A program made the translations under genes and the position numbers. Shown piece after piece: positions 1,285 to 20,125 of a stretch of DNA of 20,875 nt (its first letter is position 1; every line of letters starts with the position of its first letter). Source of the stretch: Candidatus Aenigmatarchaeota archaeon (GTDB taxonomy: Archaea; Aenigmatarchaeota; Aenigmatarchaeia; QMZP01; QMZT01); assembly GCA_003663325.1 (NCBI GenBank), contig QMZT01000014.1, positions 1 through 20,875 on the forward strand, given 5' to 3'. Below the pieces are notes generated by a model. That model was not told where the DNA came from. It made no database searches and worked only from the letters and a program-made list of their open reading frames with translations.

Positions 1285-1899
1285 CTACTTAAAAACCTCT
1301 ATAACCCTGTAATTAACACCAAGCTCTTTCAATATATTTGTTATTTTTTCCATATAAGGTTGACCAATTATTACAGCGCTATTCCCTATTCTTTCCCCTG
1401 CCTCTTCGATCACACCTTTATACCTTTTATTTTTTCCCCAGTATCCAAAAATTTTTCTATTGAGTTTAACCCTCGTTTTAGCATCTTTAGGTGTGCTCCA
1501 TTCTATTATCGCATATTTATTTAGATTTGCTTGAACAGACTTGCCGAATAATAGAATACCATCTTTAGTCACAGAATCCCTCAATCCCCATTCATCAAAC
1601 GAACCAATTACTATATTTATGGGATTTTCTACTCCAATTGCTTTCCATATCTCAAACGTTTTGGAAAAGAAAAATTTCTCTCGTATATAGCCGATATCCT
1701 TTTTTAATGCCGCCTCTCCATCTTTATAGCATTCTACGAATATATCAACATCACTACTATTTTTAATGTCACCTCTAGCCACAGACCCAAATAGATAAAT
1801 ATTTCTTATTTTATCGATTTTCTCTGTCTCAAGCATCTTTATCATGAACGAGATAAATGAACATGCATAAGCAATAAGTTGTTTCTGTCTAAACCTCAT
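1285..1899 (-). CDS. minimal nucleotidyltransferase (MNT, Pol-beta superfamily) with C-terminal extension; antitoxin-like partner of the upstream HEPN-like gene
   Basis: 'LFGSVARGDIKNSSDVDIFV' is the GS..(8-12)..DxD nucleotidyltransferase signature. The start ATG 1897-1899 overlaps the stop of the upstream ORF by 11 nt, implying translational coupling. An alternative start is ATG 1845. The ~100-aa C-terminal extension is unassigned. Confidence 0.75.
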   Translation of the reverse strand: MRFRQKQLIAYACSFISFMIKMLETEKIDKIRNIYLFGSVARGDIKNSSDVDIFVECYKDGEAALKKDIGYIREKFFFSKTFEIWKAIGVENPINIVIGSFDEWGLRDSVTKDGILLFGKSVQANLNKYAIIEWSTPKDAKTRVKLNRKIFGYWGKNKRYKGVIEEAGERIGNSAVIIGQPYMEKITNILKELGVNYRVIEVFK

Positions 1900-2290
1900 C
1901 CAAAACCCCCTCCTTCTCCACTATATTTTTTAACTCATTAAATAGGTTTAGATAGTCCTCTAACTCATCTTTTTTCCTTCTCTTTCCATAGCAGAGTATA
2001 TTTCTACGCTTCTCTATCTCTACCAACAAATTTATTATCTTGTCCTTTTCAGGAAAGTCAAAATGAAGCGTTTCTTTTGCTTTTCTTATGGATGAGAAAT
2101 CCGTATGCTTCAGTATCCTTTCCTCGCTAAGTAAGCCAAGTTTATGTAGCATAACTTCTACTATTTCCGTTGCACAAACAGATACATGAAAGCCTAGACT
2201 TCTTTGTCTCCTCTCTAACCCAAGCTCTATAGCTTCTTCTATCTCTTCTAGACTTTCCCTTATATTTTTGACATGCTCTTCTATTTTCAT
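1889..2290 (-). CDS. HEPN-like helical protein (Rx4H motif 'RSLGFH'), toxin-like partner of the MNT
   Basis: The track ORF 1889-2350 begins with a TTG inside the operator repeats. The first ATG (MKIEEHVKN...) is at 2288-2290. 'ERRQRSLGFHVS' fits the HEPN R-x4-6-H pattern. Its small size, predicted helical character and 11-nt overlap with an MNT gene fit HEPN/MNT modules. Homology is not proven. Confidence 0.5.
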   Translation of the reverse strand: MKIEEHVKNIRESLEEIEEAIELGLERRQRSLGFHVSVCATEIVEVMLHKLGLLSEERILKHTDFSSIRKAKETLHFDFPEKDKIINLLVEIEKRRNILCYGKRRKKDELEDYLNLFNELKNIVEKEGVLDEV

Positions 2291-2299
2291 GTTCTCTAA

Positions 2300-2380
2300 T
2301 AACAATTGTATTGTTACAACTTTATAAACCTTATTGTTATTTTGTAACAACTCTATTGTTACATCTGAACAACAATTTAA
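2300..2380. promoter_or_regulatory. operator-like array of TTGTT/AACAA half-sites and palindromes around a TATA box, upstream of the HEPN-like/MNT operon
   Basis: ACAATTGT (2303-2310) is a perfect palindrome. TTGTTACAA (2311-2319) and its reverse complement TTGTAACAA (2342-2350) form an inverted repeat. Further ATTGTTAT (2333-2340), ATTGTTACAT (2355-2364) and AACAACAATTT (2369-2379) follow. TTTATAAA (2321-2328) is TATA-like and lies about 30-38 nt before ATG 2290. Confidence 0.55.
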
Positions 2381-2388
2381 AACAAAAG

Positions 2389-3324
2389 CTATCGCATATC
2401 CTTACTCTTTACTTTCTTTGCATGCTCAATGAGCCTGTGAAGGTAATCAAAGGTAAAGTTTTGCCATTCTTTCCATCTTGTTGGACCAAATCTCTCATAC
2501 CCTTCTATTACCTTTGCTTTTTCTCCCAACTCCTCTGCAGCTGTATGTACCTTTCTCCCGAGCTCTTTAGCCTTCTTATAGACCTCGTAGTAAATCTCTC
2601 TATAGCGATAGTCTCTCAAAAGATGGTGATCTAGTATAACTTTAGACTCTGTATGAGTAATGATATAAAGTGTATTTTCGATAACCTTCTTTAGGTTTTC
2701 AAAGGATGCGAGAAAGCCAAGCAGATAGGAAGGAAAGCCATCCAAAATAAGCAAGCTTGGGTCTTGCTTGGTAATAAGCTTTGCATAACTATTAATGTAC
2801 GGCCCATCTATATCTGAGGAATGTAAAAGCTTGCTATCATTATCCTTTATACTTACCATGATAACCTTGCCCAAATTCGTTCCCTCTACCCCATGCCACA
2901 GAGGTGGTGAGAACTCTATTATTGTGGAACCAAATTTGAATTTCTTATTATCAGCAACCTCTATCTTCTTTGGCTTTACTATTTTTAAAAAATAGCTTGC
3001 CCTTTTCATTTGGCTTGCGTTTATATTATTAAGAGGATCCTTTATTAACAAATGCTTTCCCCTGTAAAGCTCGCTTTGCGGTATATGATGGTCGTAATGG
3101 TAATGGGTTATGATTATTATATCTGCATCCTTGCATGCTTTCTTTATCCTGCCTTTATACTTCATCTTTAATGCAAGCTTTTCGTATCTTGGCAATGGGA
3201 AAGAACCAGTCTCGCCTGCAATCCCAGGGTCAATGCATACTCTAACATCTTTTGTCTCAACAAAAACACAGCTTGATTTAACACCAAAGGAATCGAAGGC
3301 TACATATTTAACTTCCATATTCAA
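2389..3324 (-). CDS. metallo-beta-lactamase-fold hydrolase, archaeal COG2248/UPF0282-like (paralog 1)
   Basis: Contains 'THYHYDHH' (the HxHxDH MBL motif) and the N-terminal 'FDSFGVKSSC..DPG'. It is clearly paralogous to ORF 18666-19613, which shares the same motifs and length. Confidence 0.85.
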   Translation of the reverse strand: MNMEVKYVAFDSFGVKSSCVFVETKDVRVCIDPGIAGETGSFPLPRYEKLALKMKYKGRIKKACKDADIIIITHYHYDHHIPQSELYRGKHLLIKDPLNNINASQMKRASYFLKIVKPKKIEVADNKKFKFGSTIIEFSPPLWHGVEGTNLGKVIMVSIKDNDSKLLHSSDIDGPYINSYAKLITKQDPSLLILDGFPSYLLGFLASFENLKKVIENTLYIITHTESKVILDHHLLRDYRYREIYYEVYKKAKELGRKVHTAAEELGEKAKVIEGYERFGPTRWKEWQNFTFDYLHRLIEHAKKVKSKDMR

Positions 3325-4383: not shown

Positions 4384-5283
4384 ATGTTTAGCTTATTAAA
4401 AAAGAGGATGGCAAGCTCTATAGAGAGGTTTGGAAAAAGGGTAAAAGAGAGGGAGATAAGTGAGAAGGATATAGATGAGTTTATTTCAGACATACAAATA
4501 GATCTGCTCAGCGTGGACATAAGTCTGGAAGTAGTGGAATTTCTCAGGCAAAGGTTAAAGGGGATGCTTGTTGGTATGAGTGTAAAAAGGTCTGAACTAA
4601 AAAGAATAATAGCCAAGGCTATTGAAAATGTTATGCTTGAAATACTAAATGCTGGTAGCTATGAAATAAAAAGTTATGGAAAGGGTACGTGCGTGCTCTT
4701 TCTCGGATTCAATGGGACAGGCAAAACAACAACACTTGCAAAAATAGGCAAATTACTGATGGAAAAGGGCTACAGCGTTGTATTTGCTGCTGGGGATACA
4801 TTTAGAGCTGCAAGTATAGAGCAACTCGCTATACATTCAAAAAAGCTTGGTGTTAAGCTAATAAAGCATAGCTATGGTGCTGATCCAGCAGCCGTTATAT
4901 TTGACGCGATAAAGCATGCCAAGACAAAGGGAATAGATTTTGTGCTTGCCGATACCGCTGGTAGAAGCCACTCGAATAAAAATTTAATGGAAGAGCTTAA
5001 AAAAATTGTCAGGGTTAACAACCCAGAAATCAAATTGCTTATATTAGATTCGCTCAGCGGTATAGATGCTATAGAGCAGGCAAAGATGTTTAATGATACT
5101 GTTGGAATAGATGCCATGATCTTTACAAAGGCTGATGTCAATGAGAAGGGCGGTATCATAATATCTGTCTGCCATGAGATTAAAAAACCTATAGCTTTCC
5201 TTTGTACTGGTCAGAGCTATGATGATATCAAAAGATTTGAAGCAAAAGAATTCGTTAGGCACATTCTACCCTTTCAGGATTAA
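4384..5283 (+). CDS. ftsY: signal recognition particle receptor FtsY (SRP GTPase, NG domain)
   Basis: Contains 'FLGFNGTGKTTTLAKI' (G1), 'DTAGR' (G3) and 'TKADV' (G4). At 299 aa with no M-domain it is FtsY rather than Ffh/SRP54. The GAGGG upstream of the ATG is RBS-like. Confidence 0.9.
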   Translation: MFSLLKKRMASSIERFGKRVKEREISEKDIDEFISDIQIDLLSVDISLEVVEFLRQRLKGMLVGMSVKRSELKRIIAKAIENVMLEILNAGSYEIKSYGKGTCVLFLGFNGTGKTTTLAKIGKLLMEKGYSVVFAAGDTFRAASIEQLAIHSKKLGVKLIKHSYGADPAAVIFDAIKHAKTKGIDFVLADTAGRSHSNKNLMEELKKIVRVNNPEIKLLILDSLSGIDAIEQAKMFNDTVGIDAMIFTKADVNEKGGIIISVCHEIKKPIAFLCTGQSYDDIKRFEAKEFVRHILPFQD

Positions 5284-7638: not shown

Positions 7639-8335
7639 AAAGAGTGTTTATGAGCATTTAGAGGAGCTAAGAGCAAGAGTAATAAGAGTGTTTGTAATAT
7701 TTTCTGCTTTTTTCCTTTTTAGTTTGTTTTTTATTGTGCAAAAGCTATTTGATATTTTTTCGCATGCATTGCAAGCCTTAAATATAAGGTTGGTTTCTAT
7801 TGGCCCAATAGATTATTTCATGGCACTTTTAAACATGTCCACCTTCATAGCCTTTCTTTTAACATTTCCTGTTTTAATCCTCGAAGCGTATATGTTTTTA
7901 TACCCTGCACTTAAACCGAATGAAAAAAGACTTGTTATTTTTGCCTTTATAGCTTCGTTCCTCCTTTTCTTTTTTGGCGTAGCCTTTGGTTACTTTGCCA
8001 TTGTTAGAATAAGTATGCAATTTTTTTCAAGAATTGCTGCGGCGTCAGGAATTGAGAATATATGGAGCACCAGTCTTTTCACCTCATTTGTTTTGTGGTC
8101 ATGCATACTGGCAGGATTGTCATTTCAGATGCCTGTATTAGGTGCTCTCCTCTCCAAAGCAGGGCTCTTAAGTAGCAATAAAATGAAAGAAGGCAGGAGG
8201 TATTTTATATTGTTTATTTTCATACTTGCTGCTATAATAACACCCCCAGACCCACTTACCCAAATATTGCTTGCGCTCCCGATGATACTGCTGTATGAAG
8301 TAACATTATTTTTTATTAAAGTATTTGGTCAATAA
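7628..8335 (+). CDS. tatC: Tat translocase subunit TatC
   Basis: 'HLEELRARVIRVFVIFSAFF...' is the typical TatC N-terminus and the protein has six hydrophobic segments. The only in-frame ATG is 7502, which overlaps tatA by 137 nt and encodes a Lys-rich artefact. A TTG at 7628 overlapping the tatA stop is my proposed start. The start is uncertain. Confidence 0.8.
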   Translation: MLDKKSVYEHLEELRARVIRVFVIFSAFFLFSLFFIVQKLFDIFSHALQALNIRLVSIGPIDYFMALLNMSTFIAFLLTFPVLILEAYMFLYPALKPNEKRLVIFAFIASFLLFFFGVAFGYFAIVRISMQFFSRIAAASGIENIWSTSLFTSFVLWSCILAGLSFQMPVLGALLSKAGLLSSNKMKEGRRYFILFIFILAAIITPPDPLTQILLALPMILLYEVTLFFIKVFGQ

Positions 8336-8350
8336 TAAAAATTAGAAAAT

Positions 8351-8496
8351 GCCCCGGTAGTCTAGTCCGGTTAAGGATGATGGCCTCTCGAGCCATAGAC
8401 CCGGGTTCAAAGCGCCTCTCTTTACGAGAGCTCCCGCTTCTACAAAGAGACCCGCGGGAGAGAAATATGTACAATGAGAAAATCCCGGCCGGGGCA
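8351..8496 (+). tRNA. tRNA-Glu (anticodon CUC) interrupted by a ~71-nt insert in the T-loop (between positions 59 and 60)
   Basis: Hand-folded. Acceptor GCCCCGG (8351-57) pairs with CCGGGGC (8489-95), with discriminator A at 8496. D-stem is GTCT/GGAT with an AGTCCGGTTAA loop. Anticodon stem ATGGC (8380-84)/GCCAT (8392-96) encloses the loop CTCTCGA, giving U33-CUC-G37. T-stem 5' CCGGG (8401-05) pairs with 3' CCCGG (8484-88). The T-loop TTCAAA|T is split by an insert at 8412-8482. Confidence 0.8.
8412..8482 (+). other. putative non-canonical tRNA intron (71 nt) with internal hairpins
   Basis: It lies between the two halves of the T-loop. It contains CTCTC..GAGAG (8418-8432) and a 7-bp stem CTCCCGC..GCGGGAG (8432-8459). 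The exact boundaries are ambiguous by 1-3 nt because of flanking A runs. Confidence 0.6.
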
Positions 8497-8498
8497 TG

Positions 8499-9248
8499 TT
8501 ACTTTTTCTTTGCGATCTTTTCAAAGGCTCTAAGCATTTCTAAAGGAAATGGGAAGATTATGGTCGAATTTTTCTCTGCGGCGATATCAGAAAGTGTTTG
8601 GTAGAGCCTTAATTGTAAAGCTTCGGGTGTTTTTTCAATAACTTTTGCAGCCTCTGTTAATTTCTTTGCTGCCTGTGCCTCGCCTTCTGCAAGAATTATT
8701 CTCGCTCTTCTATCACGCTCAGCCTCTGCCTGGTGTGCCATTGCCCTCTTCATATTCTCTGGAAGCTCAATATCCTTTATCTTAACATCCGTTACCTTTA
8801 TTCCCCACGGATCTGTTTCCTTATCTACAATATTTTTTATTTTCGAGCCTATCTCTTCTCTTTTTGCCAATATTATATCGAGCTCAGCCCTACCACACAT
8901 ATCCCTTAAAGCAGACTGCGAAAGCTGTGAGACCGCATACCTGTAATCCTCAACCTCAAGTATAGCTTTGCTGGCATCACTAACCCTAAAGAACACAACA
9001 CCATTAACCTTTATTGGCACATTATCTTCTGTCATGACCTCCTGAGAAGGTATATCTATGGTTACAACTCTCATATCAACCTTTTCAAGCCTTTCTATTA
9101 TAGGTATTATCCACCTAAGCCCAGGGCCGAGCACACCAACAAATCTGCCAAGCCTAAATTTAACACCCCTTTCATACTGATTTATTATCCTTATACCAGA
9201 TAATGCTAAAAGCAATGCAAAAATACCTAGCCAAACAAACCATGCCAT
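8499..9248 (-). CDS. SPFH/band-7 (stomatin/prohibitin-like) membrane protein
   Basis: An N-terminal TM is followed by the 'YERGVKFRLGRF..PGL..IIP.IE...VDMR' SPFH core and a C-terminal coiled-coil 'AEAERDRRARIILAEGEAQAAK'. Confidence 0.88.
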   Translation of the reverse strand: MAWFVWLGIFALLLALSGIRIINQYERGVKFRLGRFVGVLGPGLRWIIPIIERLEKVDMRVVTIDIPSQEVMTEDNVPIKVNGVVFFRVSDASKAILEVEDYRYAVSQLSQSALRDMCGRAELDIILAKREEIGSKIKNIVDKETDPWGIKVTDVKIKDIELPENMKRAMAHQAEAERDRRARIILAEGEAQAAKKLTEAAKVIEKTPEALQLRLYQTLSDIAAEKNSTIIFPFPLEMLRAFEKIAKKK

Positions 9249-11443: not shown

Positions 11444-11646
11444 TCAATCACCTCCAAGAAAATTGATAAAGAATTGAGACAAAACCAATGAGCGCTCTTT
11501 ATAAGAGCAAGAGCAACAACAAAAGTAGGCAAGTTAGCAAGGTATCGCTGCGGTGCATACAAAACATATTACATGGCTCCATGATTTATTCTTCTATTCC
11601 AAAATATTTAAATCATTATTATACCTGCTGTTTTAAAAATATTTTT

Positions 11647-14600
11647 ATGAGCAAATCCAAATGCATGGTTGCGTTCATTTTATTGGTAGGTTTATTTTTA
11701 GCCGAGCTATGTTTTAGCTACAATACACAAATAGACAAAAAGCTGTACAGCTTTTACACAAGTCAAAAGGACGGGTATGTTGATGTTATAGTAAAAGTAA
11801 AAAACAGCTCTTTGGGCAAATTTCTCTTGAAAGAAGGCGGGATAAGAAGGTATTTAAGGGACAATGCAATTGCGATAAGGGTTAGTATGAGCGAGCTAAA
11901 AAGGCTTATAGAAGCTGGAGATATTGAGCAAATAGGTTTGGATAGAAAGGTGAGACCATTTTTACAGCAATCCGTGCCTTTGATAAGAGCCAATGATACA
12001 TGGAAGCTAAGAGCTGATGGGATAAATATAAGTGGCTCTGGGCTCAGCGTGTGTGTAATCGATACTGGGATAAACTATATGCATCCAGATTTAGGTGGAT
12101 GCAAGCTTATTAGAAATAACTATACAGGCAATATAAAAAGCTACAGGCTTGAGTCGCCCCATGAATATGAAAACTCAACCACATATTTATGGGATATAAC
12201 TATGCCAGGGTTTACAAAGATAGCAGTTCATTTTAAGAATATAAGCACGGAGGCAAATTACGATTACGTCAAGGTTTACGATAAAGATATGAGATTGCTC
12301 TCCCTCTACTCTGGAGCTCATGAAGACGTATGGACACCATCAGCTAGCGGGAACAGGATTTATATAAAACTTATTACCGATACCTATGTAAGTGGTTATG
12401 GATTTTATATAGATAAGGTTATAAATGGGAGTGTAAATACAACCTACAGCTGGAGTAATTGTACGAAGGTTATAGACGGGTATGATATTTATAATTCTGA
12501 TCAAGATCCGATGGATGATAACGGTCATGGGACGCATGTTGCAGGGATAATAGCTGCAAACGGCAATATATATGGGGTAGCTAAAGATGCTAAGCTTGTT
12601 GTGCTAAAGGTTTTCCCTGCAAACGGTGAAGCAACAGTTAGTGATGTTATAGCTGCTATTGATTGGTGCCTAAACAAAAGCAAGGAGTATAACATAACGG
12701 TAATAAGCATGAGTTTAGGAACAGATGAGCTGTATGACAGCTATTGCGATAATAGCGATATAGAGAATGAGCTAATGGCTAACGCTATAGATGATGCAGT
12801 AAGCATGAATATAAGTGTTGTTGTTGCTACAGGAAATGATGGCTCAACCAGCGGCGTGTCTTCTCCAGCATGTATAAAAAATGTGATAAGGGTCGGCTCG
12901 ACAACAAAAAGTGATACTATTTCCTCCTTTACCAATAGAGGAGCAAACTTTAGCGATATAATACTTGCCCCTGGGAGTAGTATAAACTCAACATGGAACA
13001 ACGGATATGCTATCAAGGATGGTACAAGCATGGCCGCGCCGCATGTATCCGGAGCCATAGCATTAATAGTGCAAGCGTATAGATCCGAGTATGGAATCAT
13101 GCCGCTCCCTCAAACTATAAAAGACATTATAATCAACACAAGTAAGAAAATATATGATTCCGCAACAGACATCAATTTCAGCAGAATTGATGTGTACAGC
13201 GCTGTTACCTCTATATTATTCCCATCCATAAAGATAGAGTCCCCATTAAATAGAGCATATAACACAAGCAACATACACTTCAACATAACTGTCAATAAAG
13301 CATTAATCAATGCTACATTTAGTATTAACAACGGCACGAATTCGAGCATGAAAAATGACACCTTATTCCATTGGTATAATACATCTTATATGCTTGAGGA
13401 CGGGCACTATAACGTAACATTTTATGTGCAGGCCATTAACAATTACAGCAACTCAGCAACAGCTCATTTTATTGTAGACACCACCCCACCAAAAATAGAT
13501 TTCATCCAGCCAACACCAAAAAACAACAAGATAATCAATACAACCACACTCTATATCAATATATCAATCAATGAATCAAATCCCTCTACACTTATTTTAT
13601 ATTTAAACGACACCATGGCTTTTGCCTACAATATCCATAATAGTGAGTGGCTTGATATAACACTTAATCTTTCTGATGGTAAATATGAATATTATGCGTG
13701 GGCTAATGACAGTGCTGGCAATAAAAATCAAACAGAGGAGAGAAATATAAGCATAGACACTACTCCACCATCTTTAACCCTTGTTGTGCTTAATCCTGAG
13801 GTAATCGAAGGGGAGAACATAACATTTCTTTTGAATGCAACCGATAACATATTGCTCTCTACCGTCTGGTACACAATAAGCAACGAAACCTTTTCTAAGC
13901 ATTATATTGTTTCCCATACCTCCATTTTTGGTGAATATACAATAAACTATAATACATCCAATATTAGCATTGGTAGCTACAACCTTACCGCATACGCTAA
14001 CGATAGCGTTGCCCATACAACCCATTATAGCTTGCGCTTTACTGTGTCTCAGGGGGTAGAGTTAAGGGTAAGGATTAGGGATAGAGAAGGTGTGGAGAAG
14101 AATATTAGCAATATAGCAATACTATACCAAAGTACTGGATGGAAGAGGAATGAAAGTTACAACACAAGCACGCTTTATTCTTTTTTGCCTGCTGGCTTTT
14201 GGAAAATAGAAATAATTGATAACACCTTCAACGCAACGCTTTTCAATGTAAATATAAGCCAAAATGAGAGCATAGATATGGTGATAGACAAGCTTAATGA
14301 AAGCAAGATAAATGTTGCTGATATATCACAGCTAACAAGGAACATAGCAAAGGCTGTATTTTTCCATACAAATGCTAGTGCCAGCTATACTATTATAAAA
14401 ATACCATATAATAGCTCAAGGCTTGATGAGACGAAGATGTCTATATTCGTATGCCACAACTTTACAAATTATGAATGCAAGGATGGGTGGGAGAATATAA
14501 CCAATACAACATCTATAGACTATGACAATGATATAGTTAGCCTCAACCTTACAGCATACTCTGCAATCGTAATAACACAAGATAAGTACTGCGGTGATGG

Positions 14601-15435
14601 TATAAAGGATGAATGGGAGGAATGTGATAACACAGACTTTAATGGAAAAACATGTTCAACTTACGGTTTCGCATACGGTAACCTTTTATGTAGTAATGAA
14701 TGCAGGATAATAACAAGTAACTGCTATAATATTGCTAAAACACCTGCAATATTTATTCCACTCAAGAAAATAAAGAAAAAGGTTTATAATGCTACTATAG
14801 CCTTACCAGAAAAAGTAATTAAAGGGCGTGTTGGCACGAGGCTGGCTGTACCACTAACCATACATAATACAGGAAATAGCGTGATTAATGCTGAGCTAAT
14901 TATAAATTCCACATGCAACCTCACTCTATATAAACCCATATATGATATCATCTTGCACCCCGGGGATGAAGAAAACATAACTATACATTTTACCCCAAGC
15001 CAGGTAGGTAGTTGCGTGCTTCATTTCTATCTGCTTCACGAGAAAGTAAAATTACATAAAGAGCTAAGGCTGGAAGTGATGAAGAAAATACCGTGTAATT
15101 ATAACCATGTGTGCGAGGAGTGGGAGAGCAAGGAGTGCAAGGATTGTGCAAAGAAGGTATGCATACAGGTTATAACCCCTGCCATTTCTCCAGAAGGTAT
15201 ATGCAAAGAATTTCCCACGCCATGCGATGTACCAAATGGCTGGAAAATCGTGGATAAGTGCGAAAAAAGTGTAAGAGAGCTAAAGGAAATAGAACAAGAG
15301 AGAAAGAAACCATCCAAATACACACCGCACACAAACCCATATATTCCATATATTTACATAATACACGGCTTGATGGTATCCTTGCCGATAGCATTTCTAT
15401 TACTATTTGTTAAGTTTTGGTTAAATATGACCTAA
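11647..15435 (+). CDS. membrane-anchored S8 subtilisin-like serine protease / surface glycoprotein (about 1263 aa from ATG 11647)
   Basis: The catalytic triad is present in context: 'CVIDTGINYMHPDL' (Asp), 'HGTHVAGIIAANG' (His) and 'GTSMAAPHVSGAIALI' (Ser). Signal peptide is 'MSKSKCMVAFILLVGLFLAELCFS'. A CUB-like segment lies between Asp and His. There are dozens of N-x-S/T sequons, a 'VDTTPP' repeat at two sites, a 'CGDGIKDEWEECDNTDFNG' Cys-rich repeat and a CARDB-like segment. The C-terminal TM is 'IIHGLMVSLPIAFLLLFV'. The track ORF begins at 11488. The 53 upstream codons lack signal-peptide character. Confidence 0.9.
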   Translation: MSKSKCMVAFILLVGLFLAELCFSYNTQIDKKLYSFYTSQKDGYVDVIVKVKNSSLGKFLLKEGGIRRYLRDNAIAIRVSMSELKRLIEAGDIEQIGLDRKVRPFLQQSVPLIRANDTWKLRADGINISGSGLSVCVIDTGINYMHPDLGGCKLIRNNYTGNIKSYRLESPHEYENSTTYLWDITMPGFTKIAVHFKNISTEANYDYVKVYDKDMRLLSLYSGAHEDVWTPSASGNRIYIKLITDTYVSGYGFYIDKVINGSVNTTYSWSNCTKVIDGYDIYNSDQDPMDDNGHGTHVAGIIAANGNIYGVAKDAKLVVLKVFPANGEATVSDVIAAIDWCLNKSKEYNITVISMSLGTDELYDSYCDNSDIENELMANAIDDAVSMNISVVVATGNDGSTSGVSSPACIKNVIRVGSTTKSDTISSFTNRGANFSDIILAPGSSINSTWNNGYAIKDGTSMAAPHVSGAIALIVQAYRSEYGIMPLPQTIKDIIINTSKKIYDSATDINFSRIDVYSAVTSILFPSIKIESPLNRAYNTSNIHFNITVNKALINATFSINNGTNSSMKNDTLFHWYNTSYMLEDGHYNVTFYVQAINNYSNSATAHFIVDTTPPKIDFIQPTPKNNKIINTTTLYINISINESNPSTLILYLNDTMAFAYNIHNSEWLDITLNLSDGKYEYYAWANDSAGNKNQTEERNISIDTTPPSLTLVVLNPEVIEGENITFLLNATDNILLSTVWYTISNETFSKHYIVSHTSIFGEYTINYNTSNISIGSYNLTAYANDSVAHTTHYSLRFTVSQGVELRVRIRDREGVEKNISNIAILYQSTGWKRNESYNTSTLYSFLPAGFWKIEIIDNTFNATLFNVNISQNESIDMVIDKLNESKINVADISQLTRNIAKAVFFHTNASASYTIIKIPYNSSRLDETKMSIFVCHNFTNYECKDGWENITNTTSIDYDNDIVSLNLTAYSAIVITQDKYCGDGIKDEWEECDNTDFNGKTCSTYGFAYGNLLCSNECRIITSNCYNIAKTPAIFIPLKKIKKKVYNATIALPEKVIKGRVGTRLAVPLTIHNTGNSVINAELIINSTCNLTLYKPIYDIILHPGDEENITIHFTPSQVGSCVLHFYLLHEKVKLHKELRLEVMKKIPCNYNHVCEEWESKECKDCAKKVCIQVITPAISPEGICKEFPTPCDVPNGWKIVDKCEKSVRELKEIEQERKKPSKYTPHTNPYIPYIYIIHGLMVSLPIAFLLLFVKFWLNMT

Positions 15436-17051: not shown

Positions 17052-17972
17052 ATGCTCAGCATTGTGTTTTTGGGAACGGGCTCGGGTATACCAACAATCA
17101 GCCGTAATCATTCCTCTATATATTTACACTATGAAGGATGGCATGCATTGTGGGATTGCGGTGAGGGGACGCAGAGGCAATTATTGATAGCAGGAAAAAG
17201 CTACATGGCAATAGACCATATCTTCATTACCCATTGGCATGCAGATCATTGGGCAGGTATAATAGGTTTATTGCAAACGATGAACTTGGAAAAGAGGAGA
17301 AAACCACTATACATTTATGGTCCCGATGCAGAGAGATTTGTTGCAGATATCTTGGATATGGATTACTGGGGAATAAACTTTGAGGTTAGAGCTGTGCAGG
17401 TGCCTTATGAAGGCAGCGAGATAAAAAAGATATATGAGGGCAAGGGGTTTGATGTTTTTTCCATACCAACAAAGCATTCTATACCAAGTGTAGCATATTG
17501 CTTTAAGGAAAGGGACAGGTGGAATGTTGATATAAAAAAGGCTGAAAGGCTTTACGGGCTGAAGCAAAGCCCAATAGTAGGCAGGCTAAAGAAATATGGA
17601 GAAATTGTCTTTAAAGGAAAGAAGATAAGGCTAGAGGATGTTGCAACCCTTAGAAAAGGGATAAAAGTGGTATATACTGGGGACACAGAACCTTGTGATA
17701 ATATAGTAAGGCTCGCAAAGGACGCTGACATACTTATCCATGACTCAACATTTACAGAGCAGGTTGAGGATAGGATGCATTCTGGGGCTAAGGAGGCCGG
17801 GGAAATAGCAAAAAAGTCAAATGTTAGGCTGCTTGTCCTTACACACTTCTCCAGAAAATACACAAATGCAAACATATTGGAAAAGGAAGCCAAAAAGATT
17901 TTTCCTAACGTAAGGGCTGCAAGAGATTTTATGAAGGTATACTTCAGGAAGGGGGAAATAATTATTAAATAG
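17052..17972 (+). CDS. rnz: ribonuclease Z (tRNA 3'-processing endonuclease, short form)
   Basis: 'MLSIVFLGTGSGIPT' and 'ITHWHADHWAGIIGLL' (HxHxDH) match the ElaC/RNase Z family, and the length is typical. Confidence 0.9.
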   Translation: MLSIVFLGTGSGIPTISRNHSSIYLHYEGWHALWDCGEGTQRQLLIAGKSYMAIDHIFITHWHADHWAGIIGLLQTMNLEKRRKPLYIYGPDAERFVADILDMDYWGINFEVRAVQVPYEGSEIKKIYEGKGFDVFSIPTKHSIPSVAYCFKERDRWNVDIKKAERLYGLKQSPIVGRLKKYGEIVFKGKKIRLEDVATLRKGIKVVYTGDTEPCDNIVRLAKDADILIHDSTFTEQVEDRMHSGAKEAGEIAKKSNVRLLVLTHFSRKYTNANILEKEAKKIFPNVRAARDFMKVYFRKGEIIIK

Positions 17973-18665: not shown

Positions 18666-19613
18666 TTATTTTTCTATCTTGCTGTTGATCTTTTTGAACA
18701 ACTCTGCATAATACTTTTCAACATCAACCTCCCTCTTCCCTTCCGTTATCTCCTTTCTCCACATCTCTAGAAAGAAATTCTCTAAGCCGTAAAATTCAGC
18801 CGAGGTTAAAATATCCTTATTAAGGGATTGTGCTAAGCTGAACACATCTTTCATTCGCTCTTTATAATCAATATCCCTAAGGATATGATGCTCCAAAATA
18901 ATCACCCTTGCATTTGTATTTTCAATGGCCTTCATAAGGTTTTGTTTAGAATTCTCAAAGTTCGAAGCCTTCATTCTCCATCCCAAAAAGATCGTGGGAT
19001 AGCCATCTATTATCGCAAACTCGGGGTTTTTCTTTAGAAACCATGACAAAGCATCAGGATCTGCCAAGCTCTGGGCATCGCTTCCGAACAAAAAAGAGCT
19101 TTCACAATCCTTTATATAAACCATTATAACCTTTCCAACCCTGCTACCAACATCCCCATGCCAAACAGCATGGGAGAATTCTATTTCTGTTTCTCCAAAT
19201 ACAGCCTTTGTTCCATCAGCCCAGCTGAGCTTTTTAACCAGCCCTTTTACATTATTCTCAAACACCCTTCCCCTACTCTTTCCAGATGCATTAATATTTT
19301 TAAGCCTGTCCTTAGCAAACACAATCTTTCCTTTAAAGCAAGCTTCATACATCTCCTTGTCTTCAGGAAAGGGGTGGTGGTCGTAATGATAATGGCTAAC
19401 AACAACTATATGTGCATACCTGCTGCATACCTCCATTATCTTCTCTCTTGCCAACCTTAATGCATACTCTTCAGCCTCTGTCGGTAAAAGTCCGTATCTC
19501 TTTGGCCCTAAAGCAACACCAGGATCTATGTATACGTTAACATCCTTTGTCATAATTAGTGTGGACATGCTTCTTACTCCAAAAGAATCAAAGGCTATTG
19601 GGATGATCTTCAT
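18666..19613 (-). CDS. metallo-beta-lactamase-fold hydrolase, archaeal COG2248/UPF0282-like (paralog 2)
   Basis: Contains 'SHYHYDHH', 'FDSFGVRSMST..DPG' and 'AVWHGDVGSRVGKVIMV', matching 'PLWHGVEGTNLGKVIMV' in paralog 1. Confidence 0.85.
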   Translation of the reverse strand: MKIIPIAFDSFGVRSMSTLIMTKDVNVYIDPGVALGPKRYGLLPTEAEEYALRLAREKIMEVCSRYAHIVVVSHYHYDHHPFPEDKEMYEACFKGKIVFAKDRLKNINASGKSRGRVFENNVKGLVKKLSWADGTKAVFGETEIEFSHAVWHGDVGSRVGKVIMVYIKDCESSFLFGSDAQSLADPDALSWFLKKNPEFAIIDGYPTIFLGWRMKASNFENSKQNLMKAIENTNARVIILEHHILRDIDYKERMKDVFSLAQSLNKDILTSAEFYGLENFFLEMWRKEITEGKREVDVEKYYAELFKKINSKIEK

Positions 19614-19669: not shown

Positions 19670-20125
19670 CTACCACCTATACCAATATCCGATCCTCACA
19701 TCCTTGGGCTTATCAAATCTCGGCACATAAGGCTTTATGTCCAGAACAGGAGAATTGTTTATCGCATCCAACCCTTTAACGTGCAGCTCATTTCCTTCAA
19801 TCTTTATTAATTTTACCAATCTCAAGGCTATAGGATTTGGTCTGTATTGACTTCTTGAGGCAAATACACCAACCACAGGCAAGCCTTTAATACTTTTTGG
19901 ACCAGGATAGGTTAGTAATTCAATTTTCTTAACCCCATGCAAAAAATAGATGACAAAGATGTGTGAAAATCTCTCCAAGCCCTTTAACCCCCTTCCGAAC
20001 TTTTTGTTAATTACTATTTTCGATCTTATCTCACTATCCAAACCCTTCTCGCATGCAGATATTATACTACGTGGATCCTTAAAGCTTGATACAACAAATC
20101 CAATAGGCTCAAGATTTATCTCCAT
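19670..20125 (-). CDS. TsaA/YaeB (TrmO-like, UPF0066) family protein
   Basis: 'EPIGFVVSSFKD', 'GLKGLERFSHIFVIYFLH' and 'LDIKPY' match the TrmO N-terminal domain (PIG.V.S.F, GLE.FSHL.V.F.FH, LDIKPY). Confidence 0.7.
   Translation of the reverse strand: MEINLEPIGFVVSSFKDPRSIISACEKGLDSEIRSKIVINKKFGRGLKGLERFSHIFVIYFLHGVKKIELLTYPGPKSIKGLPVVGVFASRSQYRPNPIALRLVKLIKIEGNELHVKGLDAINNSPVLDIKPYVPRFDKPKDVRIGYWYRW

Follow-up and report, generated by a model that had tools for sequence, protein, structure and literature searches.

A probable 71-nt protein-spliced intron at position 59/60 of a tRNA-Glu(CUC) gene from a DPANN archaeon

The stretch of DNA analysed here, 20,875 nt of contig QMZT01000014.1 from a Candidatus Aenigmatarchaeota archaeon (the window in what follows), contains at 8351-8496 what is very probably a functional, colinear tRNA-Glu(CUC) gene of a DPANN archaeon, interrupted between tRNA positions 59 and 60 in the T-loop by a 71-nt archaeal intron of the protein-spliced type, as judged from its sequence and modelled folds. 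Joining 8351-8411 to 8483-8496 in silico yields a 75-nt molecule that ARAGORN calls tRNA-Glu(ctc) with every stem paired (21 of 21 cloverleaf stem pairs intact), which agrees with the original prediction of a tRNA-Glu(CUC) gene split by a 71-nt insert at 8412-8482. The spliced form has a 7-bp acceptor stem, a D-arm, a 5-bp anticodon stem with a 7-nt loop and a 5-bp T-stem with a 7-nt T-loop, and its sequence includes the conserved bases U8, G18-G19, U33, T54-T55-C56 and A58. The acceptor stem, D-loop, anticodon, T-stem and interrupted T-loop TTCAAA/T (a slash within a sequence here marks the break or cut) could all be read in the DNA as previously described, and removing the insert restores a standard tRNA, as in archaeal protein-spliced introns.

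The spliced product is identical at 60-68 of 75 positions to other archaeal tRNA-Glu(CUC) genes, uninterrupted ones included; for the uninterrupted genes with the same T-arm that were recovered as by-catch of a metagenome scan, the range is 55-66 of 75. The G+C content of the tRNA exons is 63%, against 38% for the genome. A perfect 12-nt Watson-Crick partner for the T-stem and acceptor stem within ~70 nt has a chance expectation of ~4e-6, which excludes a chance origin of the split cloverleaf. The two exons are colinear and lie 71 nt apart, so that the gene is neither split nor circularly permuted.

Detection of the gene depends on recognising the intron. ARAGORN found no tRNA in the raw window and, when run with intron search, as the original prediction had proposed, on 8300-8550, again found none, because it models anticodon-loop introns only. 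Rfam gave no match in this region at the gathering threshold. Against the general tRNA model (RF00005) the unspliced DNA scored 25.7 bits in its 5' part only, below the gathering score of 29, as expected of a gene interrupted in the T-loop, and at a relaxed E-value (up to 10, 8250-8600) the search returned, besides this tRNA part, a chance anti-hemB match on the minus strand (13.5 bits). A gene that is invisible to ARAGORN and below the threshold of the general Rfam tRNA model matters for annotation: a pipeline lacking a step for archaeal non-canonical introns would report an organism without tRNA-Glu(CUC). Such introns are searched by default in tRNAscan-SE 2.0 (PMC8450103). Three short open reading frames (52-75 aa) that overlap the region were dismissed, as they run through the tRNA stems.

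The insert is flanked by AAA and AAAA runs, which make the junctions 56/57, 57/58, 58/59 and 59/60 equivalent in sequence; all four yield the same mature product, and the assignment to 59/60 therefore rests on structure and comparison rather than on sequence alone. Each of the four registers was checked against the geometry on which archaeal splicing endonucleases act: a 4-bp central helix next to an outer helix, and two bulges of 3 nt in which the cut follows the second base. This geometry is found at 59/60 alone, with the T-stem acting as outer helix, and the same register is seen in 17 other genes, which upholds the position originally proposed. The corresponding structure, comprising the T-stem, the AA/U bulge and the central helix, is present in the minimum-free-energy fold.

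The motif at this junction is a relaxed one. The 3' bulge is intact, but the central helix consists of three pairs and an A.A mismatch and the inner helix past the 5' site of only two contiguous pairs (C-G and G-U), so the strict hBHBh' form is absent, in line with the earlier failure to find a clean canonical bulge-helix-bulge (BHB) motif by eye. What folding and register analysis found instead is the type of relaxed motif that had been suggested, with one site in a 3-nt bulge between helices and the other in a loop; this is the hBH or bulge-helix-loop form (motif names follow PMC3239211 and PMC6379350). A nested BHB inside the intron was looked for by eye and not found.

Comparison with related genes supports this geometry. 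[quoted passage not shown] A metagenome scan with a pattern of tRNA anchor, gap and loose hairpin motif returned mostly tRNA-Glu genes with no interruption, since acceptor and trailer sequences satisfied the loose motif; its useful yield was two further intron-bearing genes, L028 and L037, from JGI metagenomes. A scan of viral contigs gave 0 matches. Counting only genes in which the 3' exon could be read, the comparison covers 17 further tRNA-Glu(CUC) genes with an intron, most of them in DPANN genomes, and in all 17 the break falls at the same site and in the same register, with inserts of 10-190 nt. The NN/U bulge directly before the T-stem is present in all 18 genes tabulated, and the 4 nt of the intron that precede its final two bases pair with U54-A57 at all four positions in 11 of the 18 and at three of four in the remaining 7, the window gene included; at least 11 full matches in 18 would be expected by chance with a probability of ~4e-16 under uniform bases. 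The A opposite A57 seen in the window recurs in L002 (AGAA) and L016 (AGGA). An inner helix of 4-8 bp is found in 8 of the 18 genes and is absent or weak in the others, and L006, L007, L013, L015, L019 and L037 form the complete 3-4-3 motif at 59/60, their inner helix measuring 4-5 bp. Splice-site geometry is thus kept in orthologous genes despite divergent introns.

Other arrangements were found among the relatives. Besides the 59/60 intron, L002, L010, L013 and L018 carry a second intron of ~23-41 nt in the D-loop region; these two-intron loci come from Micrarchaeota, Aenigmatarchaeota and 'uncultured archaeon' genomes. The tRNA-Glu(CUC) gene of L009 (CAZCGS010000049.1, 'uncultured archaeon isolate SRP141552_co1_229', minus strand, ~5100-5240) is circularly permuted at 59/60, with a 3' segment TCCCGGCGGGAGCA (positions 60-73), a GG linker and a 5' segment (positions 1-59), and when rejoined gives a 75-nt tRNA-Glu(ctc) in ARAGORN. 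Its leader UGGG AA/U, ahead of the T-stem strand, can pair with UUCA. Position 59/60 is therefore disrupted across several DPANN phyla in all the ways known, by short introns, long introns, double introns and gene permutation, which supports the view of it as a favoured place for a break, acceptable because one helix of the splicing motif comes from the T-stem. This cross-phylum disruption, the permuted L009 gene and the covarying hairpin of related introns described below are more interesting leads than the window gene itself, which leaves the known splicing mechanism unchanged. In L006, a second tRNA match extends over 134 nt on the minus strand (2481-2614, 38.3 bits) and is probably another intron-containing tRNA gene of the same genome.

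The proposed processing route begins with transcription of a precursor of ~146 nt plus leader and trailer. The exons would then fold into the cloverleaf while U54-C56 (and A57) pair with 8477-8480, placing the AA/U bulge beside the T-stem; this pairing is supported by predicted structure and comparison. A broad-specificity EndA of DPANN type could recognise the relaxed bulge-helix-loop (hBH-type) motif, by analogy with the 59/60 intron of ARMAN-2 tRNA-Cys, and would cut after A59 (8411/8412) and before U60 (8482/8483). An RtcB-type ligase, as generally in archaea, would join the exons and probably circularise the intron. CCA is absent from the DNA and would be added post-transcriptionally.

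The intron interior can adopt two competing folds. A two-hairpin fold, consisting of a 7-bp stem and a companion stem (Table 1), dominates the window ensemble (p ~0.92-0.95). The original prediction had emphasised the 7-bp stem CTCCCGC/GCGGGAG, which is real, occurs in the minimum-free-energy fold and is thermodynamically dominant in the window (p ~0.92). No clear equivalent was found in L005, L006 or L037; as judged by eye, a similar stem of 7 bp is possible in L028 with the register shifted. The alternative is a conserved hairpin that the 7-bp stem excludes. The first ~45 nt of the window intron are homologous to introns of L005, L006, L028 and L037, with the remainder unalignable, and the L008 intron equals that of L028 where it is readable. 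The shared form is a hairpin in which a 2x2 internal loop separates the outer stem, 7-10 bp long, from an inner stem capped by a U-N-N-C loop, and it is present in the minimum-free-energy folds of L006 and L028. In the five-sequence alignment, 85% of the cells of its 16 pairs are paired, compared with 55-60% when the strands are slid by 1-2 columns and 36-40% when slid by three. In the window, all seven pairs of the outer stem are intact, including one compensatory C-G.

The hairpin most likely serves as an intron-side helix beside the 5' splice site or as a folding aid. L019 has exons near-identical to those of L006 but an unrelated intron, which indicates that the hairpin is dispensable for splicing at 59/60. 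A covariance model of the hairpin (R1), searched against 249 kb of fetched DNA, recovered only its training introns and a weak match in the L013 intron, with nothing to suggest that the element is mobile or present at other places, and a motif search found its core once in the window. No Rfam family matches the intron, in the window or in relatives. The L037 intron (Ga0315547_1059607) is like that of L006 with the addition, right after the conserved hairpin, of a ~51-nt largely palindromic insertion (CATGTGCAC...GTGCACATG), possibly a small mobile element within the intron. A self-splicing group I or II intron was rejected as an identity for the insert, which at 71 nt compares with a core of hundreds of nucleotides and matched no Rfam intron family in the relaxed search. 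A box C/D guide RNA was also rejected, with no CUGA in the intron by eye and no Rfam snoRNA match; AAUGAGA (8473-8479), the string closest to a C box, shares bases with the T-loop-pairing strand. No K-turn was seen in the intron by eye.

Several observations weigh against a functional intron spliced at 59/60 as described above. The motif is weaker than in most relatives, owing to the A.A mismatch and the 2-bp inner helix, and in the predicted ensemble a shifted register, UUCA/UGAG with a bulge of 5 nt, has a slightly larger share (0.35-0.39) than the productive one (0.22-0.25). The conserved hairpin is predicted at only ~0.01 in the window. The counts of 17 of 17 relatives and 18 of 18 genes, window gene included, reflect conservation of geometry and not intron frequency, as the non-T requirement of the search selected interrupted genes. 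No EndA gene was found on the 32-kb contig by gene tables or by tblastn in any DNA examined, where a Methanocaldococcus jannaschii EndA query gave no significant match in all fetched DNA; the gene tables likewise list no RNA ligase gene on the contig. The lack of a splicing enzyme on the contig, together with the failure of the unspliced gene in ARAGORN and Rfam and the A runs at both insert ends (TTCAAA/G ... GAGAAAA/T), which can be read as a target duplication, would suit a pseudogene, that is, a tRNA broken by an unspliced 71-nt insertion such as a small mobile element duplicating an AAA target. Decay of this kind is nevertheless very unlikely given the unbroken set of cloverleaf pairs, the unrelated inserts that interrupt 17 other genes at the same site with their exons intact, and the constant retention of a 4-nt segment complementary to U54-A57; intact exons and the retained segment argue for selection for splicing. 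Apart from these introns, neither the window nor the 249 kb of related DNA contains another copy of the insert or its core motif. A real intron could also be excised at 56/57, 57/58 or 58/59, or through the shifted UUCA/UGAG helix with its larger bulge, as the mature sequence would be identical for all four junctions, the shifted 4-bp helix is slightly the more populated in the predicted ensemble and, as reported in PMC3239211, bulges of 1-4 nt are tolerated by broad-specificity enzymes. This reading, too, is very unlikely: registers 56/57 to 58/59 lack an outer helix and have a poor central helix, and the bulge is exactly NN/U beside the T-stem in 17 of 17 relatives, most of which are free of the A-run ambiguity. 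The shifted helix is considered non-productive, because symmetric cuts under BHB geometry would leave a 9-nt T-loop.

A further proposal accepts the intron and gives its hairpin a role of its own, as a functional RNA module (a protein-binding site, a stable circular RNA or a folding switch) selected in Aenigmarchaeota tRNA-Glu introns. The hairpin core is common to the window, L005, L006, L028/L008 and L037 in introns that are otherwise unalignable, changes on both sides of the helix are seen in 6 of its 16 pairs, and the window, as by eye L028, can form a mutually exclusive downstream stem. The covariation, however, comes from five sequences only, two of them closely related, with a shuffle control that ignores relatedness; the element matches nothing in Rfam and shows by eye neither C/D boxes nor a K-turn signature, and in other relatives this site is occupied by quite different introns, as the L019-L006 pair illustrates. 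An intron-side helix inherited by descent may be all that it is, and a module role is rated as unlikely. Slightly less likely still is a combined scenario in which the 59/60 intron is old in DPANN archaea and the shared hairpin is a selected module rather than leftover spacer, perhaps a binding site, a stable circular RNA or a two-state fold controlling the presentation of the splice sites; the window intron, with its two alternative folds, would then exemplify such a switch. The preferred reading is that the hairpin is the intron-side helix beside the 5' splice site, kept by descent and mild selection, with a separate function conceivable but unsupported.

Table 1. Features of the interrupted tRNA-Glu(CUC) gene and its surroundings in the window
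Feature	Position	Strand	Remarks and basis
TATA-like AT-rich stretch TATTTTTTATTAA	8307-8319	+	begins and ends ~44 and ~32 nt ahead of the tRNA gene; possible promoter of archaeal type
5' exon, tRNA positions 1-59	8351-8411	+	acceptor 5' strand, D-arm, anticodon arm, variable region, T-stem 5' strand, T-loop TTCAAA; sequence; ARAGORN on spliced form; Rfam tRNA partial match 8351-8407, 25.7 bits
Acceptor stem GCCCCGG	8351-8357	+	pairs with CCGGGGC at 8489-8495; sequence
D-stem GTCT/GGAT with D-loop AGTCCGGTTAA	8364-8374 (D-loop)	+	sequence
Anticodon arm ATGGC-CTCTCGA-GCCAT		+	sequence
Anticodon CTC (positions 34-36)	8387-8389	+	between T33 and G37; ARAGORN cloverleaf; sequence
T-stem 5' strand CCGGG	8401-8405	+	pairs with CCCGG at 8484-8488; outer helix of splicing motif; pair probabilities 0.6-0.89
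T-loop TTCAAA + T	8406-8411 + 8483	+	sequence
Central helix 5' strand, U54-A57	8406-8409	+	pairs with AGAA at 8477-8480, three pairs and an A.A mismatch; fold, register analysis
5' splice site AA/G	8410-8412	+	predicted cut 8411/8412; in a loop, no closed 3-nt bulge; unpaired p 0.72-0.96
Intron, exactly 71 nt, position 59/60	8412-8482	+	removal restores 7-nt T-loop; register geometry; same register in 17 other genes
Companion stem CTCTC/GAGAG	8416-8420 / 8426-8430	+	part of favoured two-hairpin fold
Conserved hairpin	8417-8450	+	alignment, pair counts; covariance model R1 score 50.5 bits
Conserved hairpin, outer stem TCTCTTT/AAAGAGA	8417-8423 / 8444-8450	+	followed by internal loop AC/AC
Conserved hairpin, inner stem GAGAGC/GCTTCT	8426-8431 / 8436-8441	+	loop TCCC
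7-bp stem CTCCCGC/GCGGGAG	8431-8437 / 8454-8460 (span 8431-8460)	+	in minimum-free-energy fold; excludes 8417-8450 hairpin
Central helix intron strand AGAA	8477-8480	+	U54-C56 pair with G8478-A8480; A57 faces A8477
3-nt bulge AA/U with 3' splice site	8481-8483	+	predicted cut 8482/8483; in minimum-free-energy fold; unpaired p 0.90-0.97
3' exon, positions 60-73	8483-8496	+	T60, CCCGG, CCGGGGC, discriminator A; CCA not encoded; sequence; ARAGORN
Discriminator A	8496	+	sequence
TTTTT run	8503-8507	+	7 nt past the tRNA 3' end; possible termination signal, inferred only

Position 59/60 is a listed archaeal intron site (PMC4090602), and the closest known counterparts of the window intron are found in ARMAN-2 (Candidatus Micrarchaeum acidiphilum), where pre-tRNA-Cys(GCA) has an intron at 59/60 and pre-tRNA-Pro(GGG) has introns at 53/54 and 59/60 (Fujishima et al. 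2011, PMC3239211). The pre-tRNA-Cys intron is 13 nt long, has a relaxed hBH motif and is cleaved in vitro by the epsilon2 EndA (PMC3239211). Both cases share a DPANN host and a T-loop intron at exactly 59/60, and tRNA-Cys also has the intact bulge beside the T-stem with the other site in a loop; they differ in phylum and isoacceptor (tRNA-Cys and tRNA-Pro in Micrarchaeota, tRNA-Glu(CUC) in Aenigmarchaeota) and in the length of the insert, which in the window is 71 nt with internal hairpins. The window gene thus adds to the known 59/60 class an Aenigmarchaeota tRNA-Glu(CUC) that combines a relaxed motif with a fairly long structured intron.

The non-canonical BHB introns of Thermoproteales and other Crenarchaeota (reviewed in PMC4090602) are similar in being protein-spliced introns at non-canonical positions, 59/60 included, with hBH and HBh' relaxed motifs and with several introns per tRNA, as in L002, L010, L013 and L018. 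Their hosts, however, belong to another superphylum and use an (alpha-beta)2 EndA with a crenarchaeal loop (L1), while other inserts, L2 and L3 (loops unrelated to the locus numbers used here), have been reported for DPANN EndA enzymes (PMC5829648). Thermofilum pendens and the red alga Cyanidioschyzon merolae have circularly permuted tRNA genes whose parts are joined at 59/60 (Chan et al. 2011, PMC3218864); in PMC4033280 and PMC3218864, T. pendens is the only archaeon reported to have permuted tRNAs. These genes share the 59/60 T-loop break and a BHB-type motif with the T-stem; their layout is matched exactly by L009, whereas the window gene runs colinearly from 5' exon through intron to 3' exon. 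Canonical introns at 37/38, with the strict hBHBh' motif, are expected to be handled by the same enzyme family and chemistry, but they lie in the anticodon loop, whereas the window intron lies in the T-loop and has an unclosed 5' bulge and one central mismatch.

The TATA-like stretch upstream of the gene and the T run downstream of it would fit with expression, but are weak evidence in a genome of such low G+C content; TATA-like boxes occur at comparable upstream distances in several related genes.

The window DNA is part of a 32.4-kb ENA metagenome contig, and a 99% identical 4.9-kb contig is present in assembly GCA_011039365.1. The original prediction had pointed to DPANN archaea or Thermoproteales from the intron position, and the gene content of the window agrees with the former. 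Its genes are archaeal, including those for ribosomal protein L3, TatC, an SPFH/Band 7 protein, an RNase Z-like metallo-beta-lactamase, TrmO and an FtsY/SRP54-type GTPase. For L3, no protein in the collection exceeds 63% identity and the nearest are from Aenigmarchaeota; its named matches come nearly all from Candidatus Aenigmarchaeota/Aenigmatarchaeota and include one of the closest. DapF is identical to NCBI entries for Candidatus Aenigmarchaeota archaeon.

Several repeats were noted around the intron. A 23-nt direct repeat (8331-8353 and 8464-8486, 74% identity) reflects a resemblance between the sequence before the 5' end, AATAATAAAAATTAGAAAAT/GCC, and that before the 3' exon, AATATGTACAATGAGAAAAT/CCC, and could be chance in AT-rich DNA or the trace of an earlier split or permuted arrangement. 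Two exon 7-mers recur in the intron in the same order as in the exon, GCCTCTC of the anticodon arm (8383-8389, again at 8414-8420) and AGACCCG of the variable region and T-stem (8397-8403, again at 8448-8454), and in L006 the intron opens with CGAGCCTTTC, which is similar to the anticodon-arm sequence of that gene, CGAGCCTCTC. As regards an intron origin by partial tRNA duplication, the AGACCCG repeat is not seen in relatives and two 7-mer matches are not far from chance.

Other genes of the contig include two with links to tRNA processing, the RNase Z-like metallo-beta-lactamase (17052-17972, plus strand) and the TrmO-family tRNA methyltransferase (19670-20125, minus strand), which thus lie on the same contig as the intron. 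Two paralogous metallo-beta-lactamase-fold proteins of 311 and 315 aa are encoded 15 kb apart on the minus strand (2389-3324 and 18666-19613) and have very similar N-termini (…AFDSFGV[KR]S…DV.V.IDPG…). NTP_transf_2/Polbeta nucleotidyltransferase genes, each beside a small open reading frame, occur at 1285-1899 with 1889-2350 (both on the minus strand) and at 7545-8571 in L042; the layout looks like that of a toxin-antitoxin pair and occurs twice on the 32-kb contig. Two very large proteins predicted to lie at the surface account for much of the contig: one is an S8 peptidase of ~1300 aa carrying CUB/Big domains (11488-15435, plus strand), and the other exceeds 2400 aa and has a Laminin_G_3 domain (L042, 1-6326).

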